A stretch of DNA of 64,000 nucleotides, taken from the IMG/VR virus record IMGVR_UViG_2974610597_000001; one strand, given 5' to 3'. Each line of letters begins with the position of its first letter. Position 1 is the stretch's first letter. Under the pieces are notes generated by a model, which saw nothing but the letters and a program-made list of their open reading frames with translations, was not told where the DNA came from and made no database searches. Position numbers and translations under genes: made by a program. Of this stretch, positions 27,160-47,511 are shown piece after piece. Source of the stretch: Escherichia virus ESCO5. Taxonomy: Duplodnaviria; Heunggongvirae; Uroviricota; Caudoviricetes.

Positions 27160-30100
27160 ATGGCAACATTCCCAACATATCCAGCAACGTCTCTCGAACA
27201 GGGCGTAGACCTGGTTATTTTCTCATCTAACCAACTCCATGATGTTATTAATGGAAGTGCTACAGAGAGTATTGAAACAGAATCAGGGTTGATACCAACC
27301 CTGAGAAAATCCCTTGTTGACAACTTTTTCTTTAAAAGCCCATTGGATTGGGCGCAAGGCACAAACGAAACAGTTTTTAACCAACTACGTTATTTTCAGA
27401 ATGGGGTATTGAGCGGTTATTATTATGCTCCTAATGCTACATTGGTAAACCCAATTCCTATGCAAGGGACTCCAGTAGGAGATAACAACTGGGTATTGTG
27501 GGGACTGAAGACAGAACAACTAGCAACAGAAGTCACCCCTTGGGTATATTCTGGTGCAACTGGTTATGAAACAGTAATCAGTCCTCCCTACATCTTTGAT
27601 AGTGCTATTGTTACAATCAATGGTGTTATTCAGGTTCTGGGAGAAGCTTTCCGCATAGAAGATAGTAAAATCATTTTATCTGAACCTTTGGGACATGATC
27701 CTGCAACAGGACTGCCAAACAAGCTTTTTGCCTATATTGGTAAAATCGTAGCTTCCGCAGATACAGATCCTAACTTAGAAAACCGTCTTGTCAGTTTAGA
27801 AACAAAAACTGAAGAACTGACAGAAAACATGGATAAAGTACCTTTACAAACTATTGCTCGTAAATACGGTTTGTTGGATGACGAAGTAGCTTACGCAACA
27901 GCGGGTCAATCATTAACAGGGATTAAAGCTCTGTATGATCCGGTAGCACAATCTTCCTACACATTGCCTCCTAACATCACAGGGACTTTAACATCTTTGT
28001 CTGTTTCTGGAGTAATGACTTATTCTGGCGGATCTGTAGATCTTTCTGCATTAGCTGTTGAACGTGGACAGTTTGTTCATTTGCCTACAAGCTTTGGTAA
28101 TAATGTAACTCTGACAGCTAAAAATCAGACGATTGGGCGTGGCGCTGGTCGCTATCGTTGGGCGGGAAGTTTACCAAAAAGTATTTTAGCTTCTGATACA
28201 TTGGAAACAAGTGGTGGATTAGGTCCAAATGCATGGGTTCTAACTAATACAGAAGGACTGTTAACCCCTCGTGGTGGAACATACAACGATTTATTCGATG
28301 TTGTCCGCTTATCAGAATTTGCTAACAATACAACTACCTATACCACACCAGAAGCAGCTTTCCAGGCGGCACTGTTAGCAGCAAAAGCTTCGAAAAGTAA
28401 GATTCTCGACGCTTACGGTTGTGATATGACTTTCACGACAAGCTCTTTTGATATTCAAGATATCACTTTGCGTGGGGGTGTGTTCCGTGGTCAACGCGAT
28501 TATCGTGTGCAAAATGCTACAGTAGAAGGCACAACTTTCCGTAACTCTCGTGTTATGTATTGGGGTGGTGCTGTGCGCATGTTCGATTGTTTGTGGGACG
28601 GTGCTCCTCGCGCAGGTCAAGTTGGTAGCTTGGTATTCCAAGGAAACCCAATATCAGGTACTTTTGAAATTGATAATTGTACTTTTAAAAACGGGTTATA
28701 TGGCATCCTTCAACAAGGAACAGGGGAACCAGTAACACGCGGTGTCTTCCGTAACCTTACCTTCATGGACATGCAAGGTGATGCAATAGAACTGAACGTC
28801 ATCAATAAACATTATGATGATGGTTGTGTGATTGAGAATATTTACCTGTCTAATATTGATGGGACTAACGCTCCTATTCCTCTGTCCAACTGGGGTATCG
28901 GTATTGGTGTGGCTGGTAAAGGACCATATGGTTACGGAATTCCTGATGATCAATATTGCAAGAATATTACAATTCGTAACGTTTTTGCAAAACGTTGTCG
29001 TCAGATTGTCCACGTAGAAGTTGGTCGTAATATTTCTATCGAAAACATTCATGGCGATCCAGATCAAACTGTATCTGTTGGGACAGGTTTGGCAACTGGC
29101 GCAGTTGTAATGTATGGAAGTAAAGATTTTACGATTGATGGTGTTTACGGAGAGCCTAAAACAGACGGTAGCACACTTGCAAGTAATATCCGTATGATTT
29201 ATTTGGAGTGGGGAACTAACGCAGTTCTGGATGAAGAGGGCAATCCGGTAGTTCCGGCACAGGGCAGACCTTCAAACCCATGCTTTAACTATTCTGTTCG
29301 TAACATTCACACCAAAACTGGGCGTGTTTTTGCAGGAGTTTCCGCTGGGCCAGGTTATGAAAACAGAGTCAGCTTTGAGAATATCCATTGTGCTGCGTTG
29401 CAGTTGTTCGGTGTAGCTTCTTGGCTTTCAATGTCTAACATCACCTGTAATATCTTTGATTGTGTTGGTCAACCTGAATCTGGTCCAGGGACATTTTATG
29501 ATGGATTCTTCCGTAGAGAAAAATCTGTTCTTGAGATGGTTAACGTAAACTGTTACCCAGATGGCAAGACTATGGTTACTGGTCGCCCACAGTGGAGCCG
29601 TTGCCGTTACTCTGATATTCATCGTGTCAACTGTAATGTTGAAGCTAATATGTATACCAATATCGCAGGTGGTATTGGAGCTATTGTAGGGACAACTGGC
29701 AAAGTTTATTACTTAGAGCCTAACCCTAGCCGAAACATTGATGGGATGCATTTCCCAACAGGGAAGGAGTTTGACAAAGGGGATATGATAGTCAAAGCGG
29801 ATAATACGTTCTTCCTTGTAACAACAAGTGGGGCATACATTCCAGATATCCCAGCTTTCGGTATTCGAGCTACACAAGCAGGAGATACCTTCCTGACACA
29901 GAACTTGACTCCTAATGGGACAGCAACAAACGCTTCTTGGTTGTATCACTATCCTCTGTCAGCAGGAACACGTATCCGTATTCCTGGTGCTGGTGTAGGT
30001 GGAGCAGATTTGGACACAGTTATTACTCGTGCACCTTATCAAGATAATGATACGTGGACTAACCCAGTTAAAATAGACATTGCAGATCCAATTGTAACGC

Positions 30101-30213
30101 CTACGAGTGCTGGAGTTAGAATCAAAACCATACCTAACGATTCTAGTAATGTTTCTGTAGGTAATACTGCGGTTATTCGCCCAACACCAGTGGTAGATGT
30201 GCCAACAACCTAA
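27160..30213 (+). CDS. tailspike with parallel beta-helix depolymerase domain
   Basis: 1017 aa; central region has repetitive beta-helix rungs (NCTFKNG, NITIRNV, NISIENIHGD). Confidence 0.55.
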   Translation: MATFPTYPATSLEQGVDLVIFSSNQLHDVINGSATESIETESGLIPTLRKSLVDNFFFKSPLDWAQGTNETVFNQLRYFQNGVLSGYYYAPNATLVNPIPMQGTPVGDNNWVLWGLKTEQLATEVTPWVYSGATGYETVISPPYIFDSAIVTINGVIQVLGEAFRIEDSKIILSEPLGHDPATGLPNKLFAYIGKIVASADTDPNLENRLVSLETKTEELTENMDKVPLQTIARKYGLLDDEVAYATAGQSLTGIKALYDPVAQSSYTLPPNITGTLTSLSVSGVMTYSGGSVDLSALAVERGQFVHLPTSFGNNVTLTAKNQTIGRGAGRYRWAGSLPKSILASDTLETSGGLGPNAWVLTNTEGLLTPRGGTYNDLFDVVRLSEFANNTTTYTTPEAAFQAALLAAKASKSKILDAYGCDMTFTTSSFDIQDITLRGGVFRGQRDYRVQNATVEGTTFRNSRVMYWGGAVRMFDCLWDGAPRAGQVGSLVFQGNPISGTFEIDNCTFKNGLYGILQQGTGEPVTRGVFRNLTFMDMQGDAIELNVINKHYDDGCVIENIYLSNIDGTNAPIPLSNWGIGIGVAGKGPYGYGIPDDQYCKNITIRNVFAKRCRQIVHVEVGRNISIENIHGDPDQTVSVGTGLATGAVVMYGSKDFTIDGVYGEPKTDGSTLASNIRMIYLEWGTNAVLDEEGNPVVPAQGRPSNPCFNYSVRNIHTKTGRVFAGVSAGPGYENRVSFENIHCAALQLFGVASWLSMSNITCNIFDCVGQPESGPGTFYDGFFRREKSVLEMVNVNCYPDGKTMVTGRPQWSRCRYSDIHRVNCNVEANMYTNIAGGIGAIVGTTGKVYYLEPNPSRNIDGMHFPTGKEFDKGDMIVKADNTFFLVTTSGAYIPDIPAFGIRATQAGDTFLTQNLTPNGTATNASWLYHYPLSAGTRIRIPGAGVGGADLDTVITRAPYQDNDTWTNPVKIDIADPIVTPTSAGVRIKTIPNDSSNVSVGNTAVIRPTPVVDVPTT

Positions 30214-30277: not shown

Positions 30278-32302
30278 ATGAATTTAACAAGACCTAATAG
30301 TGCGATAGCCGATCTAGTAGAAGCTACTTATCGAAAACGTCGCAGTTTTGAGGCAGGTTTTACATTACGTAATTCCCGTGAAGTTTTGCTGTTAGCGGCA
30401 GAAGGGAATTATTACCAATGGAAAGGAACTTTTCCTAAAGTAGTTCCAGCAAACTCTACGCCAGCCACCACAGGTGGTATTTCTTCCCTTGCATGGCAAA
30501 GTGTTGGGACCGCTGATGATATAGCAATTATCAATGCCAAGTTTACGGCAATGCAGCAACAGATTGATGATCTGTCGGAAACAATACCTGAAGCTGGTAA
30601 ATCGGCTTATCAGATCGCACTTGATAATGGTTTTGTTGGAACAGAAGCACAATGGCTTGCTTCTTTGAAAGGGGATACTGGTGCTCAACTTAATATTAAA
30701 GGATCATTAGCAAGCACTAGTGAACTACCATCTACAGGTAACGTAGCAGGTGATGGTTATATTGTAGGAGATGTAATCTACGCTTGGGATGGGGCTGTTT
30801 GGAAACTTATCTCTTCTCTTGGGCCAGAAGGGAAATCAGCTTACGAGGTATGGTTAGCAGATGGTAATACAGGATCTGTTTATGACTTTCTTGCCTCTAT
30901 AAAAGGTGATAAAGGAGACGTTGGTCCTACAGGTCCACAGGGTGCACCTGGTGTCAACGCTAATGGTTTTGATTACCGTGGAGATTTGCCTTCTACAAGT
31001 AACTTACCACAACCTAACTCTGAAAACGTAAGCCAAGCTTATTCTATTAATGGTAATCTTTATGTCTCTAATGGGACAGCTTGGGTCAACATGGGTAATA
31101 TTGTTGGTCCTCAAGGTCCACAAGGTGAGGCAGGTAAAGACGGTCTAGATGGAACAGATGGAGACGAAGGGAAATCTGCATATCAAAGTTGGCTGGATGC
31201 TGGTAATGAAGGGACAGAAGTAGATTTTATTGCCTCACTTAAAGGTCCAAAAGGAGACAAGGGTGATCAAGGAGAGCGAGGTCCACAAGGTGAACTAGGT
31301 CCACAAGGACCAGTGGGTGCAACAGGATCAGGTTTAGAGATTATCGGGGTTCTGAACAGCGAAGCTGAACTTCCTCCTACTGGAGAAGTAGGTGATGCAT
31401 ATAAAATTAATAATGATTTGTATGTTTGGGTTCAAGATGCTACAGAATGGATGAATGTAGGCAGTCTTGGAGGAACATCAATTACAGCTAAAGGTCATGT
31501 TCCGAACAGTGAAGCTCTCCCTGTTTATAATAACTACGGTGATGCCTATTTAACTGAAGACACTAGTAATCTTTACATCTATACCTACGATCAAGACACC
31601 AATTCCGCATCTTTTGTTGACATGGGAAGTATTAAAGGCGACAAAGGTGAAAAAGGGGATAAAGGAGATAAGGGTGATCCTGGAACAAACGGAACCAACG
31701 GTACTGATGGGACCAACGGTAAGGACGGCGCACAGTGGTTTGTAGCAACAACTAATCCAGTCACAGGAGACGGTGTTATCAATGATTACGCCTTCAATAC
31801 TACCACTGGAGCAGTATTTAAGAAAACAGATTCTTCTACGTGGACACTTATAGGAACTCTTCCTAGTATACCAGAAGCCCCTCAAGACGGCTTGACGTAT
31901 GGTCGTTCTGATGGAAACTGGATCGAAATATCAGGATCAGATCCTACGGAAGCTATAACACCAACTAGAGTTACAGCAGGTTTCATGGAACTTGAAACAA
32001 CTACTGCCAACTCTGGAGCATCTTGGACTCCTTCTGGAACTTCCAATATGTATGTTGTTACAGTAACTGACGCTCTGACAGTTGGAGCATGGCCTGGTGT
32101 CACTGGCTCTACAAAACCTAAAGCGTTTTCAGCAATGATTTATTTGATTCAAGATACAACGGGACACACGGTTACACTAGATGCGTCTTATGGAGCACTA
32201 AATGATACAGAAATAGCAACTACTGCTAACGCAGTAACAATTTTGCAATTAACGTATCCTGGTGTGGGTGATATCGTGGACATGGTTGTTGTAACACGAT
32301 AA
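30278..32302 (+). CDS. collagen-like tail fibre protein
   Basis: 674 aa with four Gly-X-Y tracts, three copies of a GKSAY..WL..G..G...DF.ASLKG motif, and four copies of a ~40-aa LP.TG..GDAY...LY.W...W...G motif. Confidence 0.7.
   Translation: MNLTRPNSAIADLVEATYRKRRSFEAGFTLRNSREVLLLAAEGNYYQWKGTFPKVVPANSTPATTGGISSLAWQSVGTADDIAIINAKFTAMQQQIDDLSETIPEAGKSAYQIALDNGFVGTEAQWLASLKGDTGAQLNIKGSLASTSELPSTGNVAGDGYIVGDVIYAWDGAVWKLISSLGPEGKSAYEVWLADGNTGSVYDFLASIKGDKGDVGPTGPQGAPGVNANGFDYRGDLPSTSNLPQPNSENVSQAYSINGNLYVSNGTAWVNMGNIVGPQGPQGEAGKDGLDGTDGDEGKSAYQSWLDAGNEGTEVDFIASLKGPKGDKGDQGERGPQGELGPQGPVGATGSGLEIIGVLNSEAELPPTGEVGDAYKINNDLYVWVQDATEWMNVGSLGGTSITAKGHVPNSEALPVYNNYGDAYLTEDTSNLYIYTYDQDTNSASFVDMGSIKGDKGEKGDKGDKGDPGTNGTNGTDGTNGKDGAQWFVATTNPVTGDGVINDYAFNTTTGAVFKKTDSSTWTLIGTLPSIPEAPQDGLTYGRSDGNWIEISGSDPTEAITPTRVTAGFMELETTTANSGASWTPSGTSNMYVVTVTDALTVGAWPGVTGSTKPKAFSAMIYLIQDTTGHTVTLDASYGALNDTEIATTANAVTILQLTYPGVGDIVDMVVVTR
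30596..31730 (+). repeat. in-frame coding repeats (collagen-like triplets and tail-fibre repeat modules)
   Basis: Seen directly in the translation of 30278..32302. Confidence 0.7.
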
Positions 32303-32305
32303 CAG

Positions 32306-32330
32306 AAGCCCCGAAAGGGGCTTTCTTTTT
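32306..32330 (+). terminator. rho-independent terminator
   Basis: AAGCCCC, GAAA loop, GGGGCTT, then TTTCTTTTT. Confidence 0.7.
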
Positions 32331-32343
32331 ATGGAGGGTTTAA

Positions 32344-35016
32344 ATGTTTCCAATTCCAATATTTACTATTATGACCAGCACTGGTGTCGTTCCTCTGCCA
32401 GCAGGTATTGTTAAAAAAGTAATCACTCTAGATTACCCAGATAATGCTGGCAATTCTAATAGCAGTTTAGCAATTTTGCTTAATGATGGTAGATTGTTTA
32501 CTCAAGGCGCAAACCTTTTTGGTGAGATTGCAGATGGAACTCGTAGTGCACGATTCAATAATTTCCACTTAGCTTCTACTGTAGTAGCGGATGTGTTTAC
32601 CGCAGATCGTTGTTTTGTTATTAAAACTAACAGTGGGGGATGGCAATATTCAGGATTGACAGCAGGGTTGGTAGGATCTATAGCAGCAGGTGGTACGGAT
32701 GCATGTGTAACTACTTGGACCAGCTTTCCATCTGTAATAACAGGGACTATCTCTTTAGCCAATCTTAAAGAGGTTAAGGGAGGATATAACAACACTCTCT
32801 GGTTGATGAATAGTGGTGTTCTTTATGGATCAGGTCAAAACACAGTAGGCAGTTTAGGTGCAAGTACTACTAACGAAGTTTCTACTCCTCGTCAGATAAC
32901 AAGTGCAGCAGTTGCTTTTGATGCAGGTTACAACCAATGCTCTTATGTCAACAATGTGGGAACCTTGCGTGTTTGTGGGGCTAGTAAAGGTTTAGCAGGT
33001 AATAATAACACAACAACAGCTTTTGTCAATGCCAAGATATCCGCTACTGAAACAGTGTATGTCAAAGATTACATCAATACAGTTTCCCAGACAATAGTTG
33101 TAGGAGATACCTCCGGTGGCACGGGTACAGTAAACTACTTATATGTTAGATCTAATACAGAAACAACCTACACTAAACTGGACACCTTTGCAGCAGGTTT
33201 CTCAACATGGAAATTTCCACCAAGCCGCCACTCTTTTTTCGTTGGGATCAATAATTCCTTGTGGGCTATTGGTAAGAACTACACTGCAAACTTAGGTTTG
33301 GGGTATGATTCTGCGAGCGGAGATCCACTCCAAGTGGGAAAACCAGTTAAACCTGAAGGAGTGGGTTCCTGGGATATAAACAAGCTCACAAGCGTTCATA
33401 CACTGAATATGGATGTTACTAACCAATTAGGTTATCAAGGAACCTTTTTCGTTTATAATGGAGATATGTATTATTCAGGTATTTGGAAAGATGGGAAAGC
33501 CTCGTATCTGTTCAATAGTGGTCTAAACTATAATAAATTCACACCAATAGCAAGCTCCGTGATTACAGGGGATGTTCTGGCAACTGGCTTAACTACAGAT
33601 TCTTTAGGAATTTGTATTGTAGGTGGAACTAAACAGTTGACACATTCTGTTAGCCCAGAAGGAGGTAAACTTTTCAATATTAAATACACTTCTTCTGCCC
33701 CTGCAAACATGACAATATCATCTACTGGTTTAATGACTTTCCATGCAGAAGGTGGTTTTGATGCAGGTATGACAGCCTTAAACGCTGAAGGAACAATTTT
33801 ATCAGATACCTCTGGAGGATATGCTTCAACATTGAGTGTTTACACCCCTAGCTTATCTGCGATGGATGTAGGAACAACACAAACAATGGTAGCAGAAATA
33901 ACACCAACAGGAGCAGCAAGCTTACCTGATATGGTTGTTGAGTATACAACTACAGATCCTAATGTTGCTACAGTAGATCCTACAACTGGTGTAATAACTG
34001 GTGTTGGTGATGGTGGTTGTAGGATTGGTTGCACAGCTACGTATCAAGGTGTTGTTACCGCTTCTGATAGTTCTTATTTAACGGTGAATGCTGTTGCGGG
34101 AAAGGAGTTAGCTCCATCTCCGAGTAGTAGTTTAACGGTTCTAAACGGATATTTCAACCACTCGGCAGATGGGGCAATTACGTTCCCAACTTTATCGGGT
34201 ACTGTTACACCAGCTAACTTTGTAGTTAAGGTGGATGACGTTGTAGTTCCTTCAAGTAAAGTAATATTTAGAAACAAAGCTTTCTCTACAGTGGATAGTT
34301 ATCCAGCAGGAGAATATAGACTGGCTATTGAATTTGCAAGTGCTTCAGTAGTTAATAGTGTGGAAGTGTCTATGGAAGCAAACCCAAGTCTTTTAGAACT
34401 TTGGGGCGGTAATAGAATCAGTTATTCTACAAGCCCAGCCTCACAATTCTTAAAAGGTTGTGCTAACTTAAGACGAATAACTTCTGATTGTTTTAGTAAC
34501 ACATCTTACACCGGAACATCTATAAGCGGTATCTTCTCTGGCTGCACAAGTTTGACAGCTATCCCTGAAGGATTATTCAGTGATGCTTTATTTCCTTCAA
34601 TGACAACAATGTCAAGCACGTTTGAAGGTTGTACATCTTTAACATCTATTCCTTCAGATTTATTTAAGAATCTGTCAAAAGTTACAAGATATTCTTACAC
34701 CTTTAAAGATTGCACCTCTCTTGCAGAAGTTCCAGCAGGAATGTTTGATAATATTCCAACGAAAGTGACCTCTTTAACAGCTACATTCCAAGGTTGTTTA
34801 GGACTTACAGATTTTAATAAGATCTTTAATGACAACCCAGGGTTAACTGTTTGTGGTAAACGTGGAGCATTATCTTCTTTCTTTAGTGGATGCACAAATC
34901 TTACAGGAACAGGAACAACATTAACAAATACATTAGGCGGAGTAGCTAATAGTTACCTATTCAGGTATTGCACAAAACTTTCTGATTATAACAACATTCC
35001 TTCCGGTTATAAATAA
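32344..35016 (+). CDS. tail fibre or receptor-binding protein with Ig-like (Big_2-type) domain and C-terminal BspA-type leucine-rich repeats
   Basis: 890 aa; Big_2-like segment (TTTDPNVATVDPTTGVITGVGDGGCRIGCTATYQGVVTA); five or six C-terminal F.GCTSLT.IP..LF repeats. Confidence 0.55.
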   Translation: MFPIPIFTIMTSTGVVPLPAGIVKKVITLDYPDNAGNSNSSLAILLNDGRLFTQGANLFGEIADGTRSARFNNFHLASTVVADVFTADRCFVIKTNSGGWQYSGLTAGLVGSIAAGGTDACVTTWTSFPSVITGTISLANLKEVKGGYNNTLWLMNSGVLYGSGQNTVGSLGASTTNEVSTPRQITSAAVAFDAGYNQCSYVNNVGTLRVCGASKGLAGNNNTTTAFVNAKISATETVYVKDYINTVSQTIVVGDTSGGTGTVNYLYVRSNTETTYTKLDTFAAGFSTWKFPPSRHSFFVGINNSLWAIGKNYTANLGLGYDSASGDPLQVGKPVKPEGVGSWDINKLTSVHTLNMDVTNQLGYQGTFFVYNGDMYYSGIWKDGKASYLFNSGLNYNKFTPIASSVITGDVLATGLTTDSLGICIVGGTKQLTHSVSPEGGKLFNIKYTSSAPANMTISSTGLMTFHAEGGFDAGMTALNAEGTILSDTSGGYASTLSVYTPSLSAMDVGTTQTMVAEITPTGAASLPDMVVEYTTTDPNVATVDPTTGVITGVGDGGCRIGCTATYQGVVTASDSSYLTVNAVAGKELAPSPSSSLTVLNGYFNHSADGAITFPTLSGTVTPANFVVKVDDVVVPSSKVIFRNKAFSTVDSYPAGEYRLAIEFASASVVNSVEVSMEANPSLLELWGGNRISYSTSPASQFLKGCANLRRITSDCFSNTSYTGTSISGIFSGCTSLTAIPEGLFSDALFPSMTTMSSTFEGCTSLTSIPSDLFKNLSKVTRYSYTFKDCTSLAEVPAGMFDNIPTKVTSLTATFQGCLGLTDFNKIFNDNPGLTVCGKRGALSSFFSGCTNLTGTGTTLTNTLGGVANSYLFRYCTKLSDYNNIPSGYK

Positions 35017-35019
35017 GAA

Positions 35020-35046
35020 AAGGAGCCATTTGGCTCCTTTCTTTTA
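35020..35046. terminator. bidirectional terminator between the convergent modules
   Basis: AAGGAGCC, ATTT loop, GGCTCCTT, flanked by an A-tract upstream and T-tract downstream. Confidence 0.7.
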
Positions 35047-35072: not shown

Positions 35073-35960
35073 TCAGAACGGAATATCATCATCGAAGTCC
35101 ATCGGAGGTTCTTCTTGATTACTTGGAGTTGGTTCTGGTTGTGGTTCAGGCTTTTTAACTTCTTTCTTCTCTTCTTTCTTAGGTTGTTCTGCGGAACCAC
35201 GAATGGCAGCAGCAACTTTATCAGACAGAGCCAGAACTTTACGAGCAGAATCAATCAGATCTTCTACAGATACAGTCTTAATGGTATGGTCTTTACAAGC
35301 ATTAAGGATAGCGTGACCAACAGATGCCCCAAGATCATAATCATTAATATCAACGCCACGAGATTCAGCAATTTCAGATTTCAGCGTGACAGTTGCAGAT
35401 TGAACAACCCCAGCGATATCGAAAGCATCGCCTTTAACACCATTACGAATCAGTTCCAGTGCACCATTTACTGCGTGACCAGTTTCCAGACCTACAGTAT
35501 CACGTTTTTTATAGGACTGTTTAGGAGCAGCATCGTTGGAACCTTTATTGCCAGAAGATTTGTTAGACTTCTGAACACCATCGGTAGACAATACTGTAAT
35601 ACGAGATTTTTTAGTATTGTAGTAAGTTTTACCGCCTTTATTATCAACGCGATCAATATCAATACTTACTTCTACACCTTTTTCAATAGTGATCCAGTTA
35701 TCACCTTCTTTGACTTGCAGGTTTTCATAACCTTCTTTCAGTTCAATGTCACCAAGAGAAATCCAAACACCTTTCTCCTCTGGTTTAGCACCTTTCTCTT
35801 TCAGAACAAGAGAAGCTCGGTGAGTTGAAACAATCGTTTTTCCTTCCCAATGAAAAGTTTTAGGTTCAGCGAATTTATCCAGTTTAACGTAGTCTACGAT
35901 ACCAGTTGCATAAGTTACGGTTTTGCCTTTACGATCAGTTTCAGTATTAATTACGGACAT
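35073..35960 (-). CDS. single-stranded DNA-binding protein-like, with E. coli SSB-type C-terminal tip
   Basis: 295 aa ending in PSNQEEPPMDFDDDIPF, nearly identical to the E. coli SSB tail; N-terminal body is not a canonical SSB OB fold by eye. Confidence 0.55.
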   Translation of the reverse strand: MSVINTETDRKGKTVTYATGIVDYVKLDKFAEPKTFHWEGKTIVSTHRASLVLKEKGAKPEEKGVWISLGDIELKEGYENLQVKEGDNWITIEKGVEVSIDIDRVDNKGGKTYYNTKKSRITVLSTDGVQKSNKSSGNKGSNDAAPKQSYKKRDTVGLETGHAVNGALELIRNGVKGDAFDIAGVVQSATVTLKSEIAESRGVDINDYDLGASVGHAILNACKDHTIKTVSVEDLIDSARKVLALSDKVAAAIRGSAEQPKKEEKKEVKKPEPQPEPTPSNQEEPPMDFDDDIPF

Positions 35961-37637: not shown

Positions 37638-40600
37638 TCAATGACAGGATGCCCAGGAATTACCCACGTCATATCCGGCAGTAAGCTGAACGTTAAGATT
37701 GTAAAATTCTCCAGCCTTAGTAACAGCTAAAGCAGCAAGTTCACCTGCCCGACTATAAGCTGTAAACCATCCACCTTTGGGAGATTCATGAATGTTAGCC
37801 CAAATTTGCCCTGTCTCTTTTTCCTTATTATGCTTCCATTCTTCAACTTTAGCAAGGCATTCTTTATCAATTTTCTTTTGTTCTTCAGGATCGTCTACTT
37901 TCTTCCAACCTAATGATTCAGGTGAAAACCATTTGAATTCTACAAGGTTACGAGAAACTTCAAGCTGGGCTTCATCGTGGTATGCAATCATTTGTTGCAC
38001 GAAGTCTTTATTCTTCCAGTCATCTTTAAAGAAGTCAACACTTAGTCCTTCTTCTTCGATCATATCGTCATAAATAACCATTGCACGTTTAGCACAGATA
38101 ACCCCACCACTTTGGAACAGAGAGTTAAGAATCGCGTGAGCAGAACGAGTAGGAACCTTACGACCGTCAATACCCAAAACATACTGTTTACCAGTCTTAA
38201 CCCAGAAATCGTTTAAACGTTCTTTAAGACGCGCCAGTGGGAATGCAGCTTCCCAGAAAGCATCGAACACCAGTTGCCCTGTAAACTTATCGCTACCAAT
38301 TGTTTTAGCAACCTTGTCGGCTTGTGCACCATAGGTAATACCATACTTAACAGATTTAGCAGGACTACGTTCAAATTTACGTCCAATAGTTTCAGTGATA
38401 CGTTTTGCCATCATGGTATGAACATCGTTAGGCTTCTCTAACAAGAGAGCGTTACAGTATTCATGAGGCTCCGGTTCGTAGCGCCAACAGTTTCCTGTGA
38501 TGGTAATGCAGTCTTTCTGACGCATGACCCACGTACCAAGTTCTGTTTGTGGACACCAAACATCCTCTACACCCCACTCTTCAATAGTCAAACTTTGAAC
38601 AGGAATGTGAGAGCGGTTAGCCAATGTTACCACTTTTACTTTCTGCTCTTTTGTATTGAAAGCTACAGAGATATTGCCTCCATGCACCAGGTACGAGGCA
38701 GTTAAAGCTGCTTCAAAAAGTTCACCTGGGTTCTGCGCCCAACGCCAAACAGGTTTTTGTTTATGTTCATGCCAGTAACCATCTGCAATCAAGAAACCTT
38801 CCAAGAAAGCTACACGCTCGGCATGAGACATATTAACTACACGCTCTACCCACGGAACATCCCATTTACCTTGTTGAACAGAAGTTAAACTATTTACCTG
38901 ATCTTGTTCCATGTTAAATGGAGCATTACAAATAATATTATCTCCTGTGCAAAGCTCGGCAGTTGTTCTGACTTTAGGCACATAAGTATTCCCTTTACTA
39001 CGGGTATTAACATACCAACGGTGATCTGCTGTTGCACGGTAAGTGTGTGATTTCCCTTTAATCTCAAACGTCTTACTATTTTTATAGAAGACCTTACCTT
39101 TTACTTTAGTCCATTCTTTCAGACCTGTTTCAGCATTGTACCCTAAAATCTCATCCCCTTCCTTCAGGTCGTGATATCCTACCCAACCTTTACGAGTCAA
39201 AGCTTGAGCATCCATCGGCACACAGTAATGCGACTCAATCTTTGCTTCCAAAGAGTCGAAGTCATAACCGATCTGGAAATATTTAGGAACTTCTACACCA
39301 AACAAGTTACGCATCTCCCATCCAAACAAAGATGTGACACGAGGGATATTGGCTACAGACCTATGCTTCATACGAGAGGTTGCAGCATCACATGTAGCGG
39401 CTGGGGTAGGAATACGCCCATCTGCCCTTACTGCGGCTAAGAAACCTTTATCGTATTCTTGATCTTCTTCATCTTCTTCCCAATCAGCACCGCCACCTAA
39501 AATAGAGTTCCTACGATGCTTATACGTTAAGTATTCTACAATCTGAGTAGCATAAGGAAATTTCTCACCCAAAGCTTGCAGGTTAGGACAGATTTCTTTT
39601 TCCTGACCTTTGGTAAAACATGGGTTAGTCAATACTTTAAGACCGCGACCTTTACCTTTTGCTATACGCTCTTGAATCTTCCTTTCCAAGGTTTCCGGTG
39701 CGCACTCCAGATGATCACAACGGTCCTGACAAAAATTAGAAGATAAAGTTTGCTCAACGTAAGCTCGAATACCTTTCTGAAGTTCTTCCTCACTCTTTTT
39801 AATCTTGGTGCCAGATTTAAGAGTCAAATCTTTATCTTTATATTCCGATGGTACCCAACCTAATCCTACAAGCCAGTTTTTAATATGGGTTGTATCGTTC
39901 AATGTCGCAGGGATGTTAGGATCACACAGAGGCTCATCTGCTGCAACTGGCAGTTTCCACTCTTTCCCCAACATAACTAACCACCAATCGCCATCCCTCT
40001 CTTCCAAATGACCATCATGTTTTTTAGCAAAATTGATCATATGGTTAGTTGGTTCGAGGTTCTTTTTAATTTGCAATTTAGGCGGAATAAAAGCTTTAAG
40101 ATAACCTTTTGTTGCTGGTTTAGGTGGCAAAATAGGCTCAACGAGTAAACGAAGACGCTCCATTTCTGCATCCAAAAAAGCAAGGTTCTCTTCTGCTTGC
40201 TTCATATTAAAAGCAAACCCACGGTGTTCCTGGCGCGTGATAATGTCTGCTACACGTTGTTCAAGTTCAAATGGACCTTCCCATTTATCATAATCACCCC
40301 ATTCTTCCATAAGGTAGTTATATACGCTCGTATTGGCTTTGTTGTCATAGATACAGTAATAAAGCATATCCGCAGCAAAAGTCTTAAATCGATCTTCTTC
40401 TGGAATCTCTTTACGGAAATCTATTTTTACATCACCACCTGCTTTTCGAGAAAGTGCTGCCAAGCTATGTCCTGATTTGCCCTCAATCTTTCGATCTGGG
40501 TTTAACACTTTACTCAAAATCAAGGAGTCAATAAGTTTTACCTTATTTTTGCCCCACGTATTATATTTAACACTGTAATCTAATCCATAAAACAGTTTTG

Positions 40601-40970
40601 TAGCCAACCAGTCGTAGTTGATACCGTTGTGAGCCACAGCCATTTCAACCAGATATTCAGGCTTGTCTTTAAAATAACCTTCATGATTAATAAAGTCTGG
40701 GAAATCTTTTAGTTGAAAATGCGTGTAATCTTGCGCCACATACTCTTTAAGAACATATGTATATTTACCATCTGACTCTTCATAAGGACGCCCATCAAAG
40801 ATGTATTTAGGGCCATCGTGGAAAGCTACTATTTCTCCTGTTTCATGGTTCTCTAAGACAATACAGTGCATTTGAAATGTGTCTTTGAGACGATAAGGAC
40901 TAGCTAAATAATCAATAGTGTCATTATTCAACAATCCGTTTGCTTCAATATCCCATGTAAACTTACTCAC
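37638..40970 (-). CDS. family A DNA polymerase with 3'-5' exonuclease domain, interrupted by a putative intein
   Basis: Exo motif DIEANGL; motif A DFDSLEAKI (res 571-579), motif B RSPAKSVKYGITYG (869-882), motif C YHDE (997-1000); about 250 extra residues between motifs A and B. GTG start overlaps the upstream TAG. Confidence 0.9.
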   Translation of the reverse strand: MSKFTWDIEANGLLNNDTIDYLASPYRLKDTFQMHCIVLENHETGEIVAFHDGPKYIFDGRPYEESDGKYTYVLKEYVAQDYTHFQLKDFPDFINHEGYFKDKPEYLVEMAVAHNGINYDWLATKLFYGLDYSVKYNTWGKNKVKLIDSLILSKVLNPDRKIEGKSGHSLAALSRKAGGDVKIDFRKEIPEEDRFKTFAADMLYYCIYDNKANTSVYNYLMEEWGDYDKWEGPFELEQRVADIITRQEHRGFAFNMKQAEENLAFLDAEMERLRLLVEPILPPKPATKGYLKAFIPPKLQIKKNLEPTNHMINFAKKHDGHLEERDGDWWLVMLGKEWKLPVAADEPLCDPNIPATLNDTTHIKNWLVGLGWVPSEYKDKDLTLKSGTKIKKSEEELQKGIRAYVEQTLSSNFCQDRCDHLECAPETLERKIQERIAKGKGRGLKVLTNPCFTKGQEKEICPNLQALGEKFPYATQIVEYLTYKHRRNSILGGGADWEEDEEDQEYDKGFLAAVRADGRIPTPAATCDAATSRMKHRSVANIPRVTSLFGWEMRNLFGVEVPKYFQIGYDFDSLEAKIESHYCVPMDAQALTRKGWVGYHDLKEGDEILGYNAETGLKEWTKVKGKVFYKNSKTFEIKGKSHTYRATADHRWYVNTRSKGNTYVPKVRTTAELCTGDNIICNAPFNMEQDQVNSLTSVQQGKWDVPWVERVVNMSHAERVAFLEGFLIADGYWHEHKQKPVWRWAQNPGELFEAALTASYLVHGGNISVAFNTKEQKVKVVTLANRSHIPVQSLTIEEWGVEDVWCPQTELGTWVMRQKDCITITGNCWRYEPEPHEYCNALLLEKPNDVHTMMAKRITETIGRKFERSPAKSVKYGITYGAQADKVAKTIGSDKFTGQLVFDAFWEAAFPLARLKERLNDFWVKTGKQYVLGIDGRKVPTRSAHAILNSLFQSGGVICAKRAMVIYDDMIEEEGLSVDFFKDDWKNKDFVQQMIAYHDEAQLEVSRNLVEFKWFSPESLGWKKVDDPEEQKKIDKECLAKVEEWKHNKEKETGQIWANIHESPKGGWFTAYSRAGELAALAVTKAGEFYNLNVQLTAGYDVGNSWASCH
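38490..39224 (-). other. putative intein (Hint domain with LAGLIDADG-like motif) inside the DNA polymerase
   Basis: Residues 583-827: N-terminal Cys, block-B-like TADH, LEGFLIADGYW, C-terminal ITITGN followed by Cys +1. Confidence 0.55.
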
Positions 40971-44088: not shown

Positions 44089-44367
44089 TTAAAATGGTTC
44101 GTTAGTCTCCATCATATATTCTGCTTCTAGTTCTTCCATGTGCTTTCTAAATTGGAAAGCAATTTCTGCTACAGTTACATTTAAATCTTTTTCAAAAACT
44201 TCTGTAGATCCTTCATAAAAACGAATACCGTCAATTAAAAGCCCTCCGTGGTAATCCCAATCGCTTTCACGAGAAAGTGGATTAGGTTCTTCATAATAGT
44301 AATCCACCTCCACAACCAAGGCTTTCCCGTTACGAGTGGTGTATTCAAAATCAAAAGTGTTAATCAT
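44089..44367 (-). CDS. hypothetical protein
   Basis: 92-aa ORF between primase-helicase and the glycosyltransferases. Confidence 0.4.
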   Translation of the reverse strand: MINTFDFEYTTRNGKALVVEVDYYYEEPNPLSRESDWDYHGGLLIDGIRFYEGSTEVFEKDLNVTVAEIAFQFRKHMEELEAEYMMETNEPF

Positions 44368-45311
44368 TATAGCTCCTCAAATAAAAGTCTACGACGCTCA
44401 TTCAACACATCAATGTGATAATGAGTCCTGACATACTTAGCTAATGCTAATCCTTTCTCCATGCAAACATCGGGAGCACTTAATAAGTATTCCGTAATAT
44501 CTTTCCACTCGGAAGGTGTTTCAGCAAAGAATAACAAATCTTTAAACTCTTGTGTATGATAATTCTCACGAGGAGAGCAGATTAAAGGTAAACCCTTAGC
44601 ACCTGCCTCAAGAATTTTAAGATTGCTTTTTGCATTATTAAACACGTTATCGATCAATGGTGCAAGACTGATTTGATGACCATCGTAAGATTCCATGTAG
44701 TAGGCATATGGTCTTACACCTTCATAAACACAAGTTGGTGCTACATTTTCCCTGATTAAAGACCATTCACGACTACTTAAAACTTCAGAATCCCTACGAA
44801 AACCACATATTGTAAGATCTTTACCAAAATCGGGCAAGATAGCCAAATCTTGTTTATGTGTTTCACTTCCAGCCCAGACTAATGGAGTTTTGGAGTAGCG
44901 ATCACGGGTCAACACAAATTGACCTTCATCGTAAGGAAGTCCATTAGGGATTATGTGCACATTATCATTGTATTGTGAAAGTTCAACTTGCAAGGCAGGT
45001 GTCGTAGTTGTAACAAGATCACTGTGCTCTAAAAACCATTTTAAATGTTCACGAATACCTGATTCAAAAATACCTTCTAACATGTGTCCTTTTGGAATAA
45101 CTAAAGAGTCATCCAAATCCATAACCATTTTAAAGCCCAGGTTTTTAAGGGCTAAAAAGCCCTCTTTACCTTTTGTTGGCACTCCGTTAAAAACGAAAAC
45201 GTTGTGTTTAGGTTGTGAAGAGAACTGCCTTGAGTAAGGCAGCACTACCCTATGGAAATCGCAGACACTATAATTGATTCCGTTACGATTGTCAAGAATT
45301 ATTTGTCCCAT
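44367..45311 (-). CDS. glycosyltransferase, GT-B-like (paralog 1)
   Basis: 314 aa; C-terminal NLKILEAGAKGLPLICS resembles the GT-B sugar-donor region; clearly paralogous to 45319..46305. Confidence 0.5.
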   Translation of the reverse strand: MGQIILDNRNGINYSVCDFHRVVLPYSRQFSSQPKHNVFVFNGVPTKGKEGFLALKNLGFKMVMDLDDSLVIPKGHMLEGIFESGIREHLKWFLEHSDLVTTTTPALQVELSQYNDNVHIIPNGLPYDEGQFVLTRDRYSKTPLVWAGSETHKQDLAILPDFGKDLTICGFRRDSEVLSSREWSLIRENVAPTCVYEGVRPYAYYMESYDGHQISLAPLIDNVFNNAKSNLKILEAGAKGLPLICSPRENYHTQEFKDLLFFAETPSEWKDITEYLLSAPDVCMEKGLALAKYVRTHYHIDVLNERRRLLFEEL

Positions 45312-45318
45312 ACTTCAC

Positions 45319-46305
45319 CTACAAACTTTCAATAACCTGGCGTCGCAATTCGTTTGCATCTGCCAGATTATAATGTGTTCGAACATGTTCCGCTAAGAAC
45401 AAGCCGCGATCTTCCCGATAGTTCGGATTGCGAAGAAGCTTAACAATTTCGTAATGCCATTCAGCTTTATTCTCTGCGTAAGCAACAGCGCGAGCATCTA
45501 CAGGGTTAAAATAAGGTAATACCTTAGAACAAACAATCGGAATACCTTTTGCCCCAGCTTCAAGGATTTTGAGATTACTTTTACAATTATTAAAATCATT
45601 GTCTACCAAAGGAGCTATAGCAATAGCATGACTTTCGTAAACACTCATGTAATTATCTAAATCTTTTACAGCAGCTTTATATTTGGCGTTTGGTAAATTT
45701 CTACGGATCTTAATCCACTCTTGCCCTGTGATACTCTGCGATGCTTCATATCCTGCAATAGTAAGAAGTTCATCATCGAAAGTATTAGAGACTAGTCGTA
45801 AATCGGGTTCGTGACTAGCACCGCCAGCCCATACAACAGGGGTACCGGATGAACGATCATTTGACAAAGTGAATTGTCCGCTATCAAAAGGAAGTGCATT
45901 TCGGATCACAACAACATTCCTATTTAAGTGACGGATCTTATATGCCAAATATTCCGTAGTCACAATGACCACATCGGCAAGCTTAACCATAGCTACAATA
46001 GCATGAGTGTTTGACTCATATAAACTTGCTAAATAATGTTCTGGATTAAGTTGGTAGAAATCATCTAAATCTACAACAATCTTAACACCTTGACGTTTCA
46101 GTGACAGAACATATTCTGCCCCTTTAGAATGAATACGGTTAAACACGACAACATCTTTCTTAGGCTGAAAATTATTGTTGTTAAATGGTATAACAATACG
46201 ATGATAATCACAACCACTGTGAGGTTTTGCATCAATTTTCAGTTTAGTCCATTTTTTATTTGACATGTGCCAGTGCCTCCTCATAAGAAATTCGGATTTT
46301 CCCAT
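45319..46305 (-). CDS. glycosyltransferase, GT-B-like (paralog 2)
   Basis: Shares CDYHRIV..., VVWAGGASHEPDL and NLKILEAGAKGIPIVCS with paralog 1; true start probably the internal Met near 46266. Confidence 0.5.
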   Translation of the reverse strand: MGKSEFLMRRHWHMSNKKWTKLKIDAKPHSGCDYHRIVIPFNNNNFQPKKDVVVFNRIHSKGAEYVLSLKRQGVKIVVDLDDFYQLNPEHYLASLYESNTHAIVAMVKLADVVIVTTEYLAYKIRHLNRNVVVIRNALPFDSGQFTLSNDRSSGTPVVWAGGASHEPDLRLVSNTFDDELLTIAGYEASQSITGQEWIKIRRNLPNAKYKAAVKDLDNYMSVYESHAIAIAPLVDNDFNNCKSNLKILEAGAKGIPIVCSKVLPYFNPVDARAVAYAENKAEWHYEIVKLLRNPNYREDRGLFLAEHVRTHYNLADANELRRQVIESL

Positions 46306-46939
46306 TTTTAATATCTTCTAAAGACGCTTTATATTCTTCCCAGTTAATGCCAATAGCAACTTCTTTCTCTTCTTTTGTCAGATTAGCAAAAGGCATAGGA
46401 TTGTTTCCAAAAACATCGTCTGGGTGGATATAAGCCATGATACGAAGTGGACAAGGTATTGCCTGAATGCCCTGATTCAAACCAGCAGCTTTCAAACGGT
46501 GTACCCATTCAGCATCTTCAAAACCATAGCCGTGAGTGTAAGGGCGGAAATAACCCATCTTCTCAACAACGGCACGAGAATACATTGCAAATTGACACAT
46601 TGCAAGTTCCCAGAGAATAACTTCTCCTTTACTCCCAACAACTTTATCTTTGAAATACTCCGGCATACCAAAGAAATCCCATCCTCCAGAGACAGCTTGA
46701 TCTACAAAATATGTTTCCCATCCCTCCATGATTGGGTAGCAATCGTCGTCAAAAATAAACCAATAATCATAACCTTCTTCATAAAACTGGTGCATAAGTT
46801 CATTCCTGGCGTAAGCTACACCTTTACGATCTGGATCGTTGAATACTCGAAAATCTGCATGTGGATCTGTTACAAGGTAGTCTTTAAGTGGACGGACACC
46901 TACAGTGATAACACCCACTCCGATTTTAATATTTTCCAT
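46256..46939 (-). CDS. glycosyltransferase, GT-A (family 2)-like
   Basis: 227 aa with DxD-type motif (IFDDDC) and GYGFEDAEW. Confidence 0.5.
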   Translation of the reverse strand: MENIKIGVGVITVGVRPLKDYLVTDPHADFRVFNDPDRKGVAYARNELMHQFYEEGYDYWFIFDDDCYPIMEGWETYFVDQAVSGGWDFFGMPEYFKDKVVGSKGEVILWELAMCQFAMYSRAVVEKMGYFRPYTHGYGFEDAEWVHRLKAAGLNQGIQAIPCPLRIMAYIHPDDVFGNNPMPFANLTKEEKEVAIGINWEEYKASLEDIKNGKIRISYEEALAHVK

Positions 46940-46947
46940 TTTCTCTC

Positions 46948-47511
46948 CTAAATAGTTTTACTGTGATCGTGACAGTGTAATAAATGATGTATAGACCGTT
47001 GAGGATTTGTTTGACCTAATCTGTAAATGTGAAACAGATACATTCCCCGCATCAATCCTAACCTCTTTCCTTTTTCATGTAAAGTGCGAGAGAAAATTAA
47101 GTCGAATTGGATAGATTTTTCTTCGAAAGGAATTTCATTCCACAATGATTTTCTAAAAAGCAAAAAGAAACCTGCCAGAGGTGTTCCGAAAGGAACTTCT
47201 TCAACACTCACTTTATGATATTCTCTTGCAATCTTAGCATATTCTATATGGTTTAGAATATCTGGATCATCGTTAATTTGGTTAGAGAAAAGCTGATAAC
47301 CACTACCTAACCTGTTACAAGTTGCACCTATTACATCAAAAGGCGGGTTTGACATAACAAGCTCTTCAAGCATAGATGGTTGATCAGGCAGGAGGAACAT
47401 TGTATCGGTATCTCTTAAGCACACCCAACTATCATCTGGAAGAACGGCAATAGCTTCATTGATAGCCTTGCCGATATTTCCTGTCAGATAGGGAGTAATA
47501 TAATAAATCAT
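46948..47511 (-). CDS. putative nucleotide-sugar transferase (GT-A-like)
   Basis: 187 aa with CLRDTDTMF; weak gestalt similarity. Confidence 0.35.
   Translation of the reverse strand: MIYYITPYLTGNIGKAINEAIAVLPDDSWVCLRDTDTMFLLPDQPSMLEELVMSNPPFDVIGATCNRLGSGYQLFSNQINDDPDILNHIEYAKIAREYHKVSVEEVPFGTPLAGFFLLFRKSLWNEIPFEEKSIQFDLIFSRTLHEKGKRLGLMRGMYLFHIYRLGQTNPQRSIHHLLHCHDHSKTI

Follow-up and report, generated by a model that had tools for sequence, protein, structure and literature searches.

The window analyzed here, a stretch of 64,000 nucleotides (nt) from Escherichia virus ESCO5 (IMG/VR record IMGVR_UViG_2974610597_000001), is Escherichia phage ESCO5 DNA, and the region described here is 100% identical to ESCO5 (NC_047776) and to vB_EcoM_REC. 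Both phages belong to the genus Phapecoctavirus of the subfamily Stephanstirmvirinae, and ESCO5, according to its record annotation, comes from chicken caecal content. We describe the gene at 32344..35016 on the + strand (ESCO5 HOR27_gp226, annotated as a 'tail protein'; hereafter gp226), whose product ends in a predicted leucine-rich repeat (LRR) domain that is exchanged as a unit among related phages. In the open reading frame list, the gene has an ATG start and encodes 890 amino acids (aa) plus a stop codon. The protein matches the PHROG 11922 'tail protein' profile over its full length (E = 0, aa 1-890 against profile positions 1-867 of 870) and its locus is syntenic in ESCO5, phAPEC8, PhiWec179, L002, and L012, identifying it as a member of PHROG 11922, the protein of Stephanstirmvirinae that has been named TfpM1 (890 or 891 aa; PMC12695924, 2025). 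As the earlier note on this DNA had proposed, gp226 is the last gene of the structural arm: it is the final + strand gene before a strand switch, the sign of the GC skew flips there, and a bidirectional terminator-like hairpin found by pattern scan (35019..35040, both strands) separates it from the convergent gene for SSB (35073-35960).

Domain architecture of gp226

A model of full-length gp226 (predicted local distance difference test, pLDDT, of 85.9; predicted template modelling score, pTM, of 0.54, as expected for a beads-on-a-string arrangement) comprises, in order, a disordered N-terminal peptide, an all-beta propeller, two immunoglobulin (Ig)-sized domains, a beta-sandwich, and an LRR with a cap, all encoded on the + strand. 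Pfam, matches in the PDB, and the model assign aa 1 to ~400 (32344..33543) to the N-terminal peptide (M-F-P-I-P...) and a putative RCC1-like beta-propeller. Over aa 40-332 this region aligns to WD40_RLD (E = 8e-11, 42.3 bits, under the curated Pfam cutoff of 150), one RCC1 repeat passes its Pfam cutoff (24.2 versus 21.7 bits), and the PDB sequence matches returned by phmmer are the RCC1 propellers of RPGR, UVR8, and HERC2. The propeller is modelled mostly at pLDDT 85-95, and near-invariant residues at the N-terminus across the family include M1, P3, P5, G14, and P17. Two Ig-like domains, identified by Pfam and the model, follow at aa ~415-495 and ~498-582 (33586..34089), the second of which is a Big_2 domain that passes the Pfam gathering threshold (35.8 versus 22.8 bits, aa 505-565, in two stretches). 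Of the features noticed ahead of the LRR, the Big_2-like Ig domain is thus confirmed and the beta-propeller-like repeats are supported.

The C-terminal part opens with a beta-sandwich at aa ~598-686 (34135..34401; strands E13-22 to E99-103 in a model of the C-terminal cassette described below and E598-686 in the full-length model), and an equivalent N-terminal beta domain is present in the alignment consensus of the cassette homologs. A motif scan and the model place the LRR solenoid at aa 703-890 (34450..35013), with seven units, the last of which form a partly helical C-terminal cap ending ...C.KLSDYNNIPSGYK. Pfam detected no coiled-coil, collagen, or beta-helix families in gp226, unlike its neighbours, and no enzymatic domain was detected in the protein.

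The C-terminal repeats are predicted to form a divergent LRR

The repeat units span aa 703-730, 731-759, 760-786, 787-814, 815-846, 847-872, and 873-890, giving lengths of 28, 29, 27, 28, 32, and 26 aa and a final partial unit of 18 aa. Six exact F..C..L units start at aa 731, 760, 787, 815, 847, and 873, and one L..C..L unit starts at aa 703. When residues were shuffled, either in the whole protein or in aa 651-890 alone, six F..C..L matches were reached in 0/20,000 shuffles and the maximum was 2, which upholds the tandem F.GCTSLT.IP..LF-type repeats of the earlier note. This consensus fits units 2-4 well, while units 1 and 5-7 are degenerate.

Structure prediction, which had been proposed as a check, supported an LRR solenoid. 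The AlphaFold model of the cassette was confident (pLDDT 85.7, pTM 0.87) and is a curved solenoid whose tandem units each give a short beta-strand to one parallel sheet, as in the LRR superfamily. At the sequence level, phmmer with gp226 matched a designed LRR in the PDB at E = 8e-6 and, more weakly, variable lymphocyte receptors. With aa 651-890 as the query, 153 homologs were found and 115 were aligned; among the latter, LRR_5 scored in 48, DUF285 in 34, and LRR_8 in 11. The family profile of these 115 proteins matched LRRTM at E = 5e-26, BspA-type 4fs7 at 7e-21, 4gt6 at 2e-19, and TpLRR, which is also the closest solved structure to the gp226 LRR.

Since no curated LRR model was passed by gp226 or by the cassette alone, the LRR call draws on structure and transitive homology. 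LRR_5 (PF13306, threshold 27.7 bits) gave no match to full-length gp226 at E <= 1 or to aa 585-890 at E <= 1e-3, and DUF285 (PF03382; 12.8 bits, E = 0.099, cutoff 25) and the PARCEL repeat TIGR02167 (NCBIfam; 21.9 bits, cutoff 30) were sub-threshold in gp226; the suggested Pfam check thus returned Big_2 and not LRR_5. In a Foldseek search, the top 50 matches were all LRR proteins, but the matches to solved structures were weak (best E = 9e-3, template modelling (TM) score <= 0.29). The sub-threshold scores and weak structural matches are what one would expect if the repeats formed a conventional phage-fibre fold, such as a beta-helix or a triple beta-spiral, with a periodic sequence. We regard this alternative as extremely improbable. 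The profile searches assigned the repeats to no standard phage fibre fold, and the independent lines described above establish, at the level of a predicted structure, the LRR fold of the gp226 C-terminus.

The gp226 unit, F..C.SLT.IP..LF.....VT.x..., joins a BspA-like 'C..L..IP' half to a DUF285-like 'VT.[MLY]...F..C' half over ~27-28 aa, rather than 23 or 26 aa. Because of these mixed half-motifs and this unit length, we classify the repeats as a divergent BspA/DUF285-class LRR that is a member of neither Pfam family. Compared with the BspA/TpLRR class (LRR_5; 6mlx TpLRR, 4fs7 BACOVA_04585, 4fdw, and 4h09), whose consensus we took as the 23-residue L..I.IP..V..Ig..AF..C.., units 2-4 retain the F..C..L..IP skeleton, but gp226 units measure 26-32 aa, owing to an extra 'LF.....' loop between IP and VT, and LRR_5 is not matched even at E = 1. 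Unlike members of that class, the gp226 LRR also has a beta-sandwich before it and its own cap motif (C.KLSDY..IP..YK) after it. The 26-residue DUF285/PARCEL repeat, found in surface lipoproteins of Mycoplasma, Listeria, and others, is nearest in length to the gp226 unit and has the half-motif VT.[MLY]...F..C..L in common with it, and its models are the only curated ones to touch the gp226 repeats directly; the 'IP..LF' half of the unit, unlike DUF285, is BspA-like. The description of the repeats as BspA-type in the earlier note therefore holds at most for fold and class, as judged by the family profile matches to 4fs7 and 4gt6, and has to be given up for LRR_5 membership and the 23-residue period.

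The LRR is carried on an exchangeable cassette

The counterpart of gp226 in phAPEC8, the type phage of the genus, is gp086 (YP_007348548; 891 aa), which lies at the same locus with the same flanking terminators. Identity between the two proteins is 98% up to aa 584, beyond which they are unrelated, and the last 307 aa of gp086 (aa 585-891; L003:5753-6673) have no Pfam match, end ...DWGSKFITGLKYYD, and are unrelated to the LRR. In their DNA, the two phages are homologous (~97%) up to 34094 and again from 35038, which lies inside the terminator, although identity is already 60-77% from ~33930, inside the second Ig domain. These DNA and protein comparisons place the cassette at 34095..35037 on the + strand, where it encompasses aa 585-890, the stop codon, and the start of the terminator, the hairpin at 35019..35040 being the right edge of the swapped block.

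The last ~306 aa of gp226 are an exchangeable cassette, and the histories of trunk and cassette are discordant. Among phage records, 65 have the trunk at 95% identity or more, and 36 have the LRR cassette at 91% or more. Between P0124-127 and ESCO5, the trunk is 75-76% and the cassette 91-92% identical; the corresponding values are 77% and 98.7% for PhiWec179 versus phAPEC8, and 99% and 63% for P0128/129 versus phAPEC8. Among 38 family members there are at least five C-terminal states: the Cys-LRR, DUF285, the phAPEC8 type, another type (P0140), and none, the last seen in relatives whose protein stops after the Ig domains at ~565-595 aa. Relatives P0141-P0145, which have a trunk as in gp226, pass the DUF285/PARCEL cutoffs, and P0141 bears a bona fide DUF285 cassette (145 bits) on this same trunk in a fully syntenic 151-kb phage contig. 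Multiple C-terminal states and discordant histories are the hallmark of a conserved mounting trunk that carries a distal specificity module, and as the LRR domain is one of several interchangeable tips on that trunk, it is probably a host-binding module. Cassettes may be exchanged when phages recombine within two conserved flanks, the second Ig domain on one side and the downstream terminator/SSB region on the other.

A similar layout, with a conserved N-terminal attachment part, a horizontally exchanged distal part, and breakpoints at domain boundaries, characterizes T-even gp37/gp38 and the tailspikes of Ackermannviridae and CBA120, which have Tail_spike_N anchors. Those receptor-binding proteins are trimeric fibres or beta-helix spikes, whereas gp226 is composed of domain types that are usually monomeric (propeller, Ig, and LRR).

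The gene also occurs at 91-99% protein identity in Campylobacter phage B15 (MG065650.1), Pseudomonas phage PsgM04F (OR584014.1), and Acinetobacter phage ABPW7 (OP562383.1). The non-Escherichia host names on these records reflect either truly polyvalent phages or doubtful labels.

Natural deletion and fusion variants

Natural variants of gp226 were found by cassette homology, which favours in-frame survivors. The cassette is kept in frame in all deletion variants found; we considered this retention as evidence of selection and, given the bias of the search, make no such claim.

The most extensive rearrangement, a natural 3.5-kb deletion, was found in a single syntenic 21-kb contig (Logan SRR10359460; L002:8001-9191). 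Here the first 73 aa of the upstream collagen-like fibre, comprising its Tail_spike_N anchor (30278..30496, + strand; Pfam aa 12-77, E = 9e-20), are joined in frame to gp226 aa 567-890, yielding a 396-aa fusion (P0001) that corresponds to window positions 30278-30521 joined to 34045-35016 and keeps the end of Big_2 and the LRR cassette. The junction has CAA and imperfect microhomology only. We rejected an assembly chimera, as the longest exact k-mer common to both genes is 11 nt, compared with an assembly at k=31.

Two further variants, both seen on near-genome-length contigs, have lost parts of the trunk but retain the N-terminus as well as the LRR cassette. In several contigs (P0324/P0325/P0131/P0331), aa 1-421 are joined to aa 579-890 with clean loss of both Ig domains, leaving a protein of 727 aa, or of 573 aa from Met155. 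In two contigs (P0315/P0320), a 610-aa protein is without aa 196-471 and so has lost the greater part of both the propeller and the first Ig domain, and this deletion sits at the 12-nt direct repeat TTTGATGCAGGT (window 32917 and 33757).

Distribution and origin of the cassette family

Among the non-orthologous homologs with an examined genomic context, the three closest (31-39% identity, ~300-400 aa) lie on phage-like contigs. P0028, in a crAss-like contig, is encoded right behind a Phage_tail_C protein and has the C-terminal cap motif in common with gp226, and P0004 and P0017 adjoin genes for lysozyme and DUF4376. A viral structure library gave structural matches to dozens of phage proteins that bear the names 'BspA family LRR' or '26-residue repeat', and a pattern scan of viral contigs found nothing. 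In the cultured P2-like Klebsiella phage ST16-OXA48phi5.4, the 1008-aa gp35 ('tail protein I') combines Tail_P2_I, Big_2, and LRR_5/DUF285 in one protein, and its repeats are 33% identical to the gp226 cassette, so that Big_2 and an LRR are displayed on a tail protein independently of ESCO5. Where gp226 has an RCC1-like propeller, this Klebsiella protein is anchored by gpI, the baseplate protein of P2 (Tail_P2_I), and ST16-OXA48phi5.4 is a temperate Peduoviridae phage with no documented cassette swap.

LRR tips therefore appear, from sequence data, to be common in phage sequence space, yet uncharacterised. The suggestion in the earlier note that an LRR is unusual in phage fibres is apt for characterised receptor-binding proteins, as our literature search for LRR or BspA in such proteins found nothing relevant and no discussion of the domain content of gp226/TfpM1; it is not apt for sequence databases, because of the dozens of phage BspA/LRR proteins and the Klebsiella fusion of Tail_P2_I, Big_2, and LRR_5.

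A sensitive search returned 14,280 cluster representatives at E <= 1e-3, the best of which are giant multi-repeat proteins (2-7 kaa, thousand aa; 30-47% identity), and the four that were scanned contain Flg_new, PKD, BACON, LRR_5, and DUF285 domains, as in cell-surface proteins. These matches favour the proposal that the cassette was acquired from a bacterial surface adhesin, but their identity of just 30-47% argues against a recent event. A pattern scan of one genome from each of 185,579 species, a method limited to fairly close relatives, turned up no close copy in bacteria and returned only a mis-binned phage contig and one 30%-identical Bacteroidales match, while the nearest homologs examined are the crAss-like and other phage-like ones described above. 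The GC content of the cassette (0.375) is near that of the window (0.392), which also counts against capture while being uninformative on foreign origin. Because the 185,579-species scan yielded no close bacterial copy, recent bacterial capture is without support, and we consider it very unlikely.

The mis-binned contig from that scan is 43.5 kb long (L009, JAEZZU010000064.1), is labelled 'MAG: Proteobacteria bacterium OH_PFB_59', and encodes the cassette at 100% identity; almost certainly, a piece of a phapecoctavirus was here assigned to a bacterial genome.

Genomic setting

The genes upstream of gp226 comprise baseplate genes, a short fibre and its assembly protein, a colanidase-like tailspike of 1017 aa (27160-30213), and a collagen-like fibre of 674 aa (30278-32302). 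Both of the latter have Tail_spike_N, which scores 71 and 37.6 bits in the two genes (Pfam). A pattern scan located a GC-rich terminator-like hairpin with a T-run, GAAGCCCC-GAAA-GGGGCTTT (32305..32324, + strand), 20 nt before the gp226 ATG, and the phAPEC8 record has a terminator annotated at the matching place upstream of its gp226 counterpart. The hairpin suggests that expression of gp226 would rely on read-through and stay below that of the upstream fibres.

Elsewhere in the window, the DNA polymerase gene (37638-40970; 1110 aa) has a clean 245-aa insertion (aa 583-827; window 38490-39224, - strand) that is missing from the 860-aa orthologue of the related phage L012. The first residue of the insertion is Cys, its end is ...TGN with Cys as the next residue, and a LAGLIDADG-like stretch, LEGFLIADGY, lies within it. 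We take it as a probable intein that includes a homing endonuclease, but Pfam gave no match to a Hint/intein family in the insertion at E <= 0.01. Among the replication genes at ~44367-47511 (- strand; L001:26024-29168) are four successive genes that are glycosyltransferases by annotation only, and their target may be DNA or another substrate.

gp226 as a candidate accessory adhesin

We favour, though without high confidence, a reading in which gp226 serves the tail-fibre apparatus of Phapecoctavirus as a modular accessory adhesin, mounted by its trunk and binding a host-surface ligand through its swappable tip. The conserved trunk, comprising the N-terminal peptide, the RCC1-like propeller, and two Ig domains, would mount gp226 on the virion and act as a spacer, and the protein would probably be monomeric and tail-associated. 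The self-contained tip, in which the beta-sandwich is followed by a solenoid of about 6-7 LRR rungs, may bind its ligand non-enzymatically, and binding by the cassette would modulate adsorption and host range. The domain folds, cassette boundaries, allelic replacement, and discordance rest on the analysis; we infer presence in the virion, a monomeric state, binding, and the identity of the ligand.

The position of gp226 after a tailspike and a fibre with Tail_spike_N, and its PHROG label, 'tail protein', count in favour of an adhesin, as do the Klebsiella fusion to Tail_P2_I and the place of P0028 behind a Phage_tail_C protein. The designation 'tail fibre' in the earlier note agrees with this position and annotation; it sits less well with the lack of Tail_spike_N and the usually monomeric domain types, and is unproven. 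Further context comes from rV5 gp27 (a 1878-aa 'Ig-like domain-containing protein') and from the BASEL 'lateral tail fiber protein with intimin domain', which likewise stand last in the fibre cluster, begin with M-[FL]-P-I-P, match the first ~185-200 aa of gp226 at 40% identity, and have Big_2. rV5 gp27 is twice as long as gp226 and has no LRR, its remaining ~1,600 aa being unrelated except for Big_2. It was weakly detected in purified virions by multidimensional protein identification technology (MudPIT; 3 peptides, 9 spectra, 3.1% coverage; PMC3606486 Table S5).

Several observations weigh against an adhesin role. The virion signal is weak and comes from rV5 gp27, which shares just ~190 aa with gp226, so that a location in the ESCO5 virion would be by analogy, and our literature search found no virion proteomics for Phapecoctavirus. 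Tail_spike_N is absent from gp226 (Pfam), which places it outside the branched spikes of the CBA120 TSP1/Gp66 type. The TfpM1 gene is absent from phi92-like phages (PMC12695924), and the phi92 cryo-electron microscopy paper (2026) therefore cannot place gp226. Orthologue variation mapped on the repeat register was dispersed, with no clear pattern that would mark a hypervariable binding face. Expression of gp226 may be low, given the terminator-like hairpin upstream. Finally, in Shigella phage SF1-1 (PQ571307.1) and in iGC_PHA_EC001 (OR437326.1) the gene aligns over 2672 nt, not 2673, and is annotated as two 'tail protein' coding sequences, through either a 1-nt frameshift or a sequencing error. 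These two split genes in deposited genomes and the large in-frame deletions suggest that the trunk, and perhaps the whole gp226 gene, is dispensable on laboratory hosts.

Some of the same observations would suit a structural or scaffolding accessory, or a non-virion protein, that has no specific ligand and whose LRR docks a phage component such as a neighbouring fibre. LRRs serve generally as modules for contacts between proteins, Pfam showed no anchor domain in gp226, a terminator-like hairpin precedes the gene, and some relatives end after the Ig domains without a cassette. A docking end should be conserved, yet it is the N-terminus of gp226 that is conserved and the C-terminus that is replaced wholesale by unrelated folds; moreover, fusion P0001 grafts the cassette on a known N-terminal anchor and leaves the LRR distal. 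On balance we think a purely structural role unlikely.

The accessory adhesin reading receives a lead from host-gene tests of PhiWec phages. PhiWec188/190, which carry the LRR cassette, need yhaH, and PhiWec179, which carries the phAPEC8-type cassette, needs flhD, as do PhiWec181 and 186; both groups need waaT, and complementation restored sensitivity (PMC12548472). For PhiWec181 and 186, the tail-fibre proteins are stated to be identical (PMC12695924). The co-variation of cassette type with the need for yhaH or flhD is a suggestive lead, not proof, and is a further point on the negative side in that it cannot be attributed to the cassette, because the two groups differ in TfpL too and because YhaH is an inner-membrane protein.

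The ligand might instead be non-bacterial. The Ig and LRR part could bind material such as animal mucus or extracellular-matrix glycoproteins, holding the phage in the gut mucosa as proposed for Ig-like capsid decoration proteins, while other fibres recognise the host. Oral and gut bacteria have LRR proteins of the BspA family that bind matrix proteins of their host, the gp226 repeat type is common to giant gut-microbe surface proteins with Flg_new, PKD, and BACON, and the Big_2 Ig domain(s), the chicken caecal source of ESCO5, and the seeming dispensability of gp226 on laboratory hosts are in keeping with such a function. Clean allelic replacement and discordant histories are, however, typical of determinants of bacterial host range, among the PhiWec phages the bacterial gene that is required changes with the type of cassette, and gp226 sits in the tail-fibre cluster, not among head genes. 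We judge a non-bacterial ligand to be fairly unlikely.

A more specific form of the adhesin reading, which we advance tentatively, is that the cassette is a true LRR-type receptor-binding domain, a monomeric tip on a propeller-Ig stalk that chooses a secondary host factor. It is conceivable, at a similarly modest level of confidence, that the LRR allele would direct the phage to a YhaH-dependent surface feature and the phAPEC8-type allele to flagella. If true, this would be the first LRR-type receptor-binding domain tied to a phenotype, as far as the searched literature shows. Constructs with which it could be tested already exist in nature: swapped alleles on trunks that are nearly identical, forms that lack the Ig domains or the propeller, and a Tail_spike_N graft.

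Significance

Phapecoctaviruses are among the coliphages of broadest host range in therapy and biocontrol cocktails, and AV125, which carries the LRR cassette at ~97% identity, infected 84/198 Escherichia coli strains in a collection producing extended-spectrum beta-lactamase (ESBL) or AmpC. Which genes build which of their many fibres is explicitly unresolved in the BASEL paper, where the assignment of fibre genes to fibres is described as unclear for this phage group, and in the phi92 cryo-electron microscopy study; the second BASEL paper does not cover the group of ESCO5. What is new here is the identification of TfpM1 as a trunk-plus-cassette protein, one common cassette of which is an LRR, with precise boundaries (aa 584/585; DNA 34094 and 35038). 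A cassette bounded in this way provides a concrete handle for host-range engineering, although the practical value is moderate, swappable receptor-binding tips already being a well-established concept. Because its phages can be cultured, TfpM1 also offers a tractable model for LRR-bearing tail proteins, many of which are known solely from uncultured gut phages.

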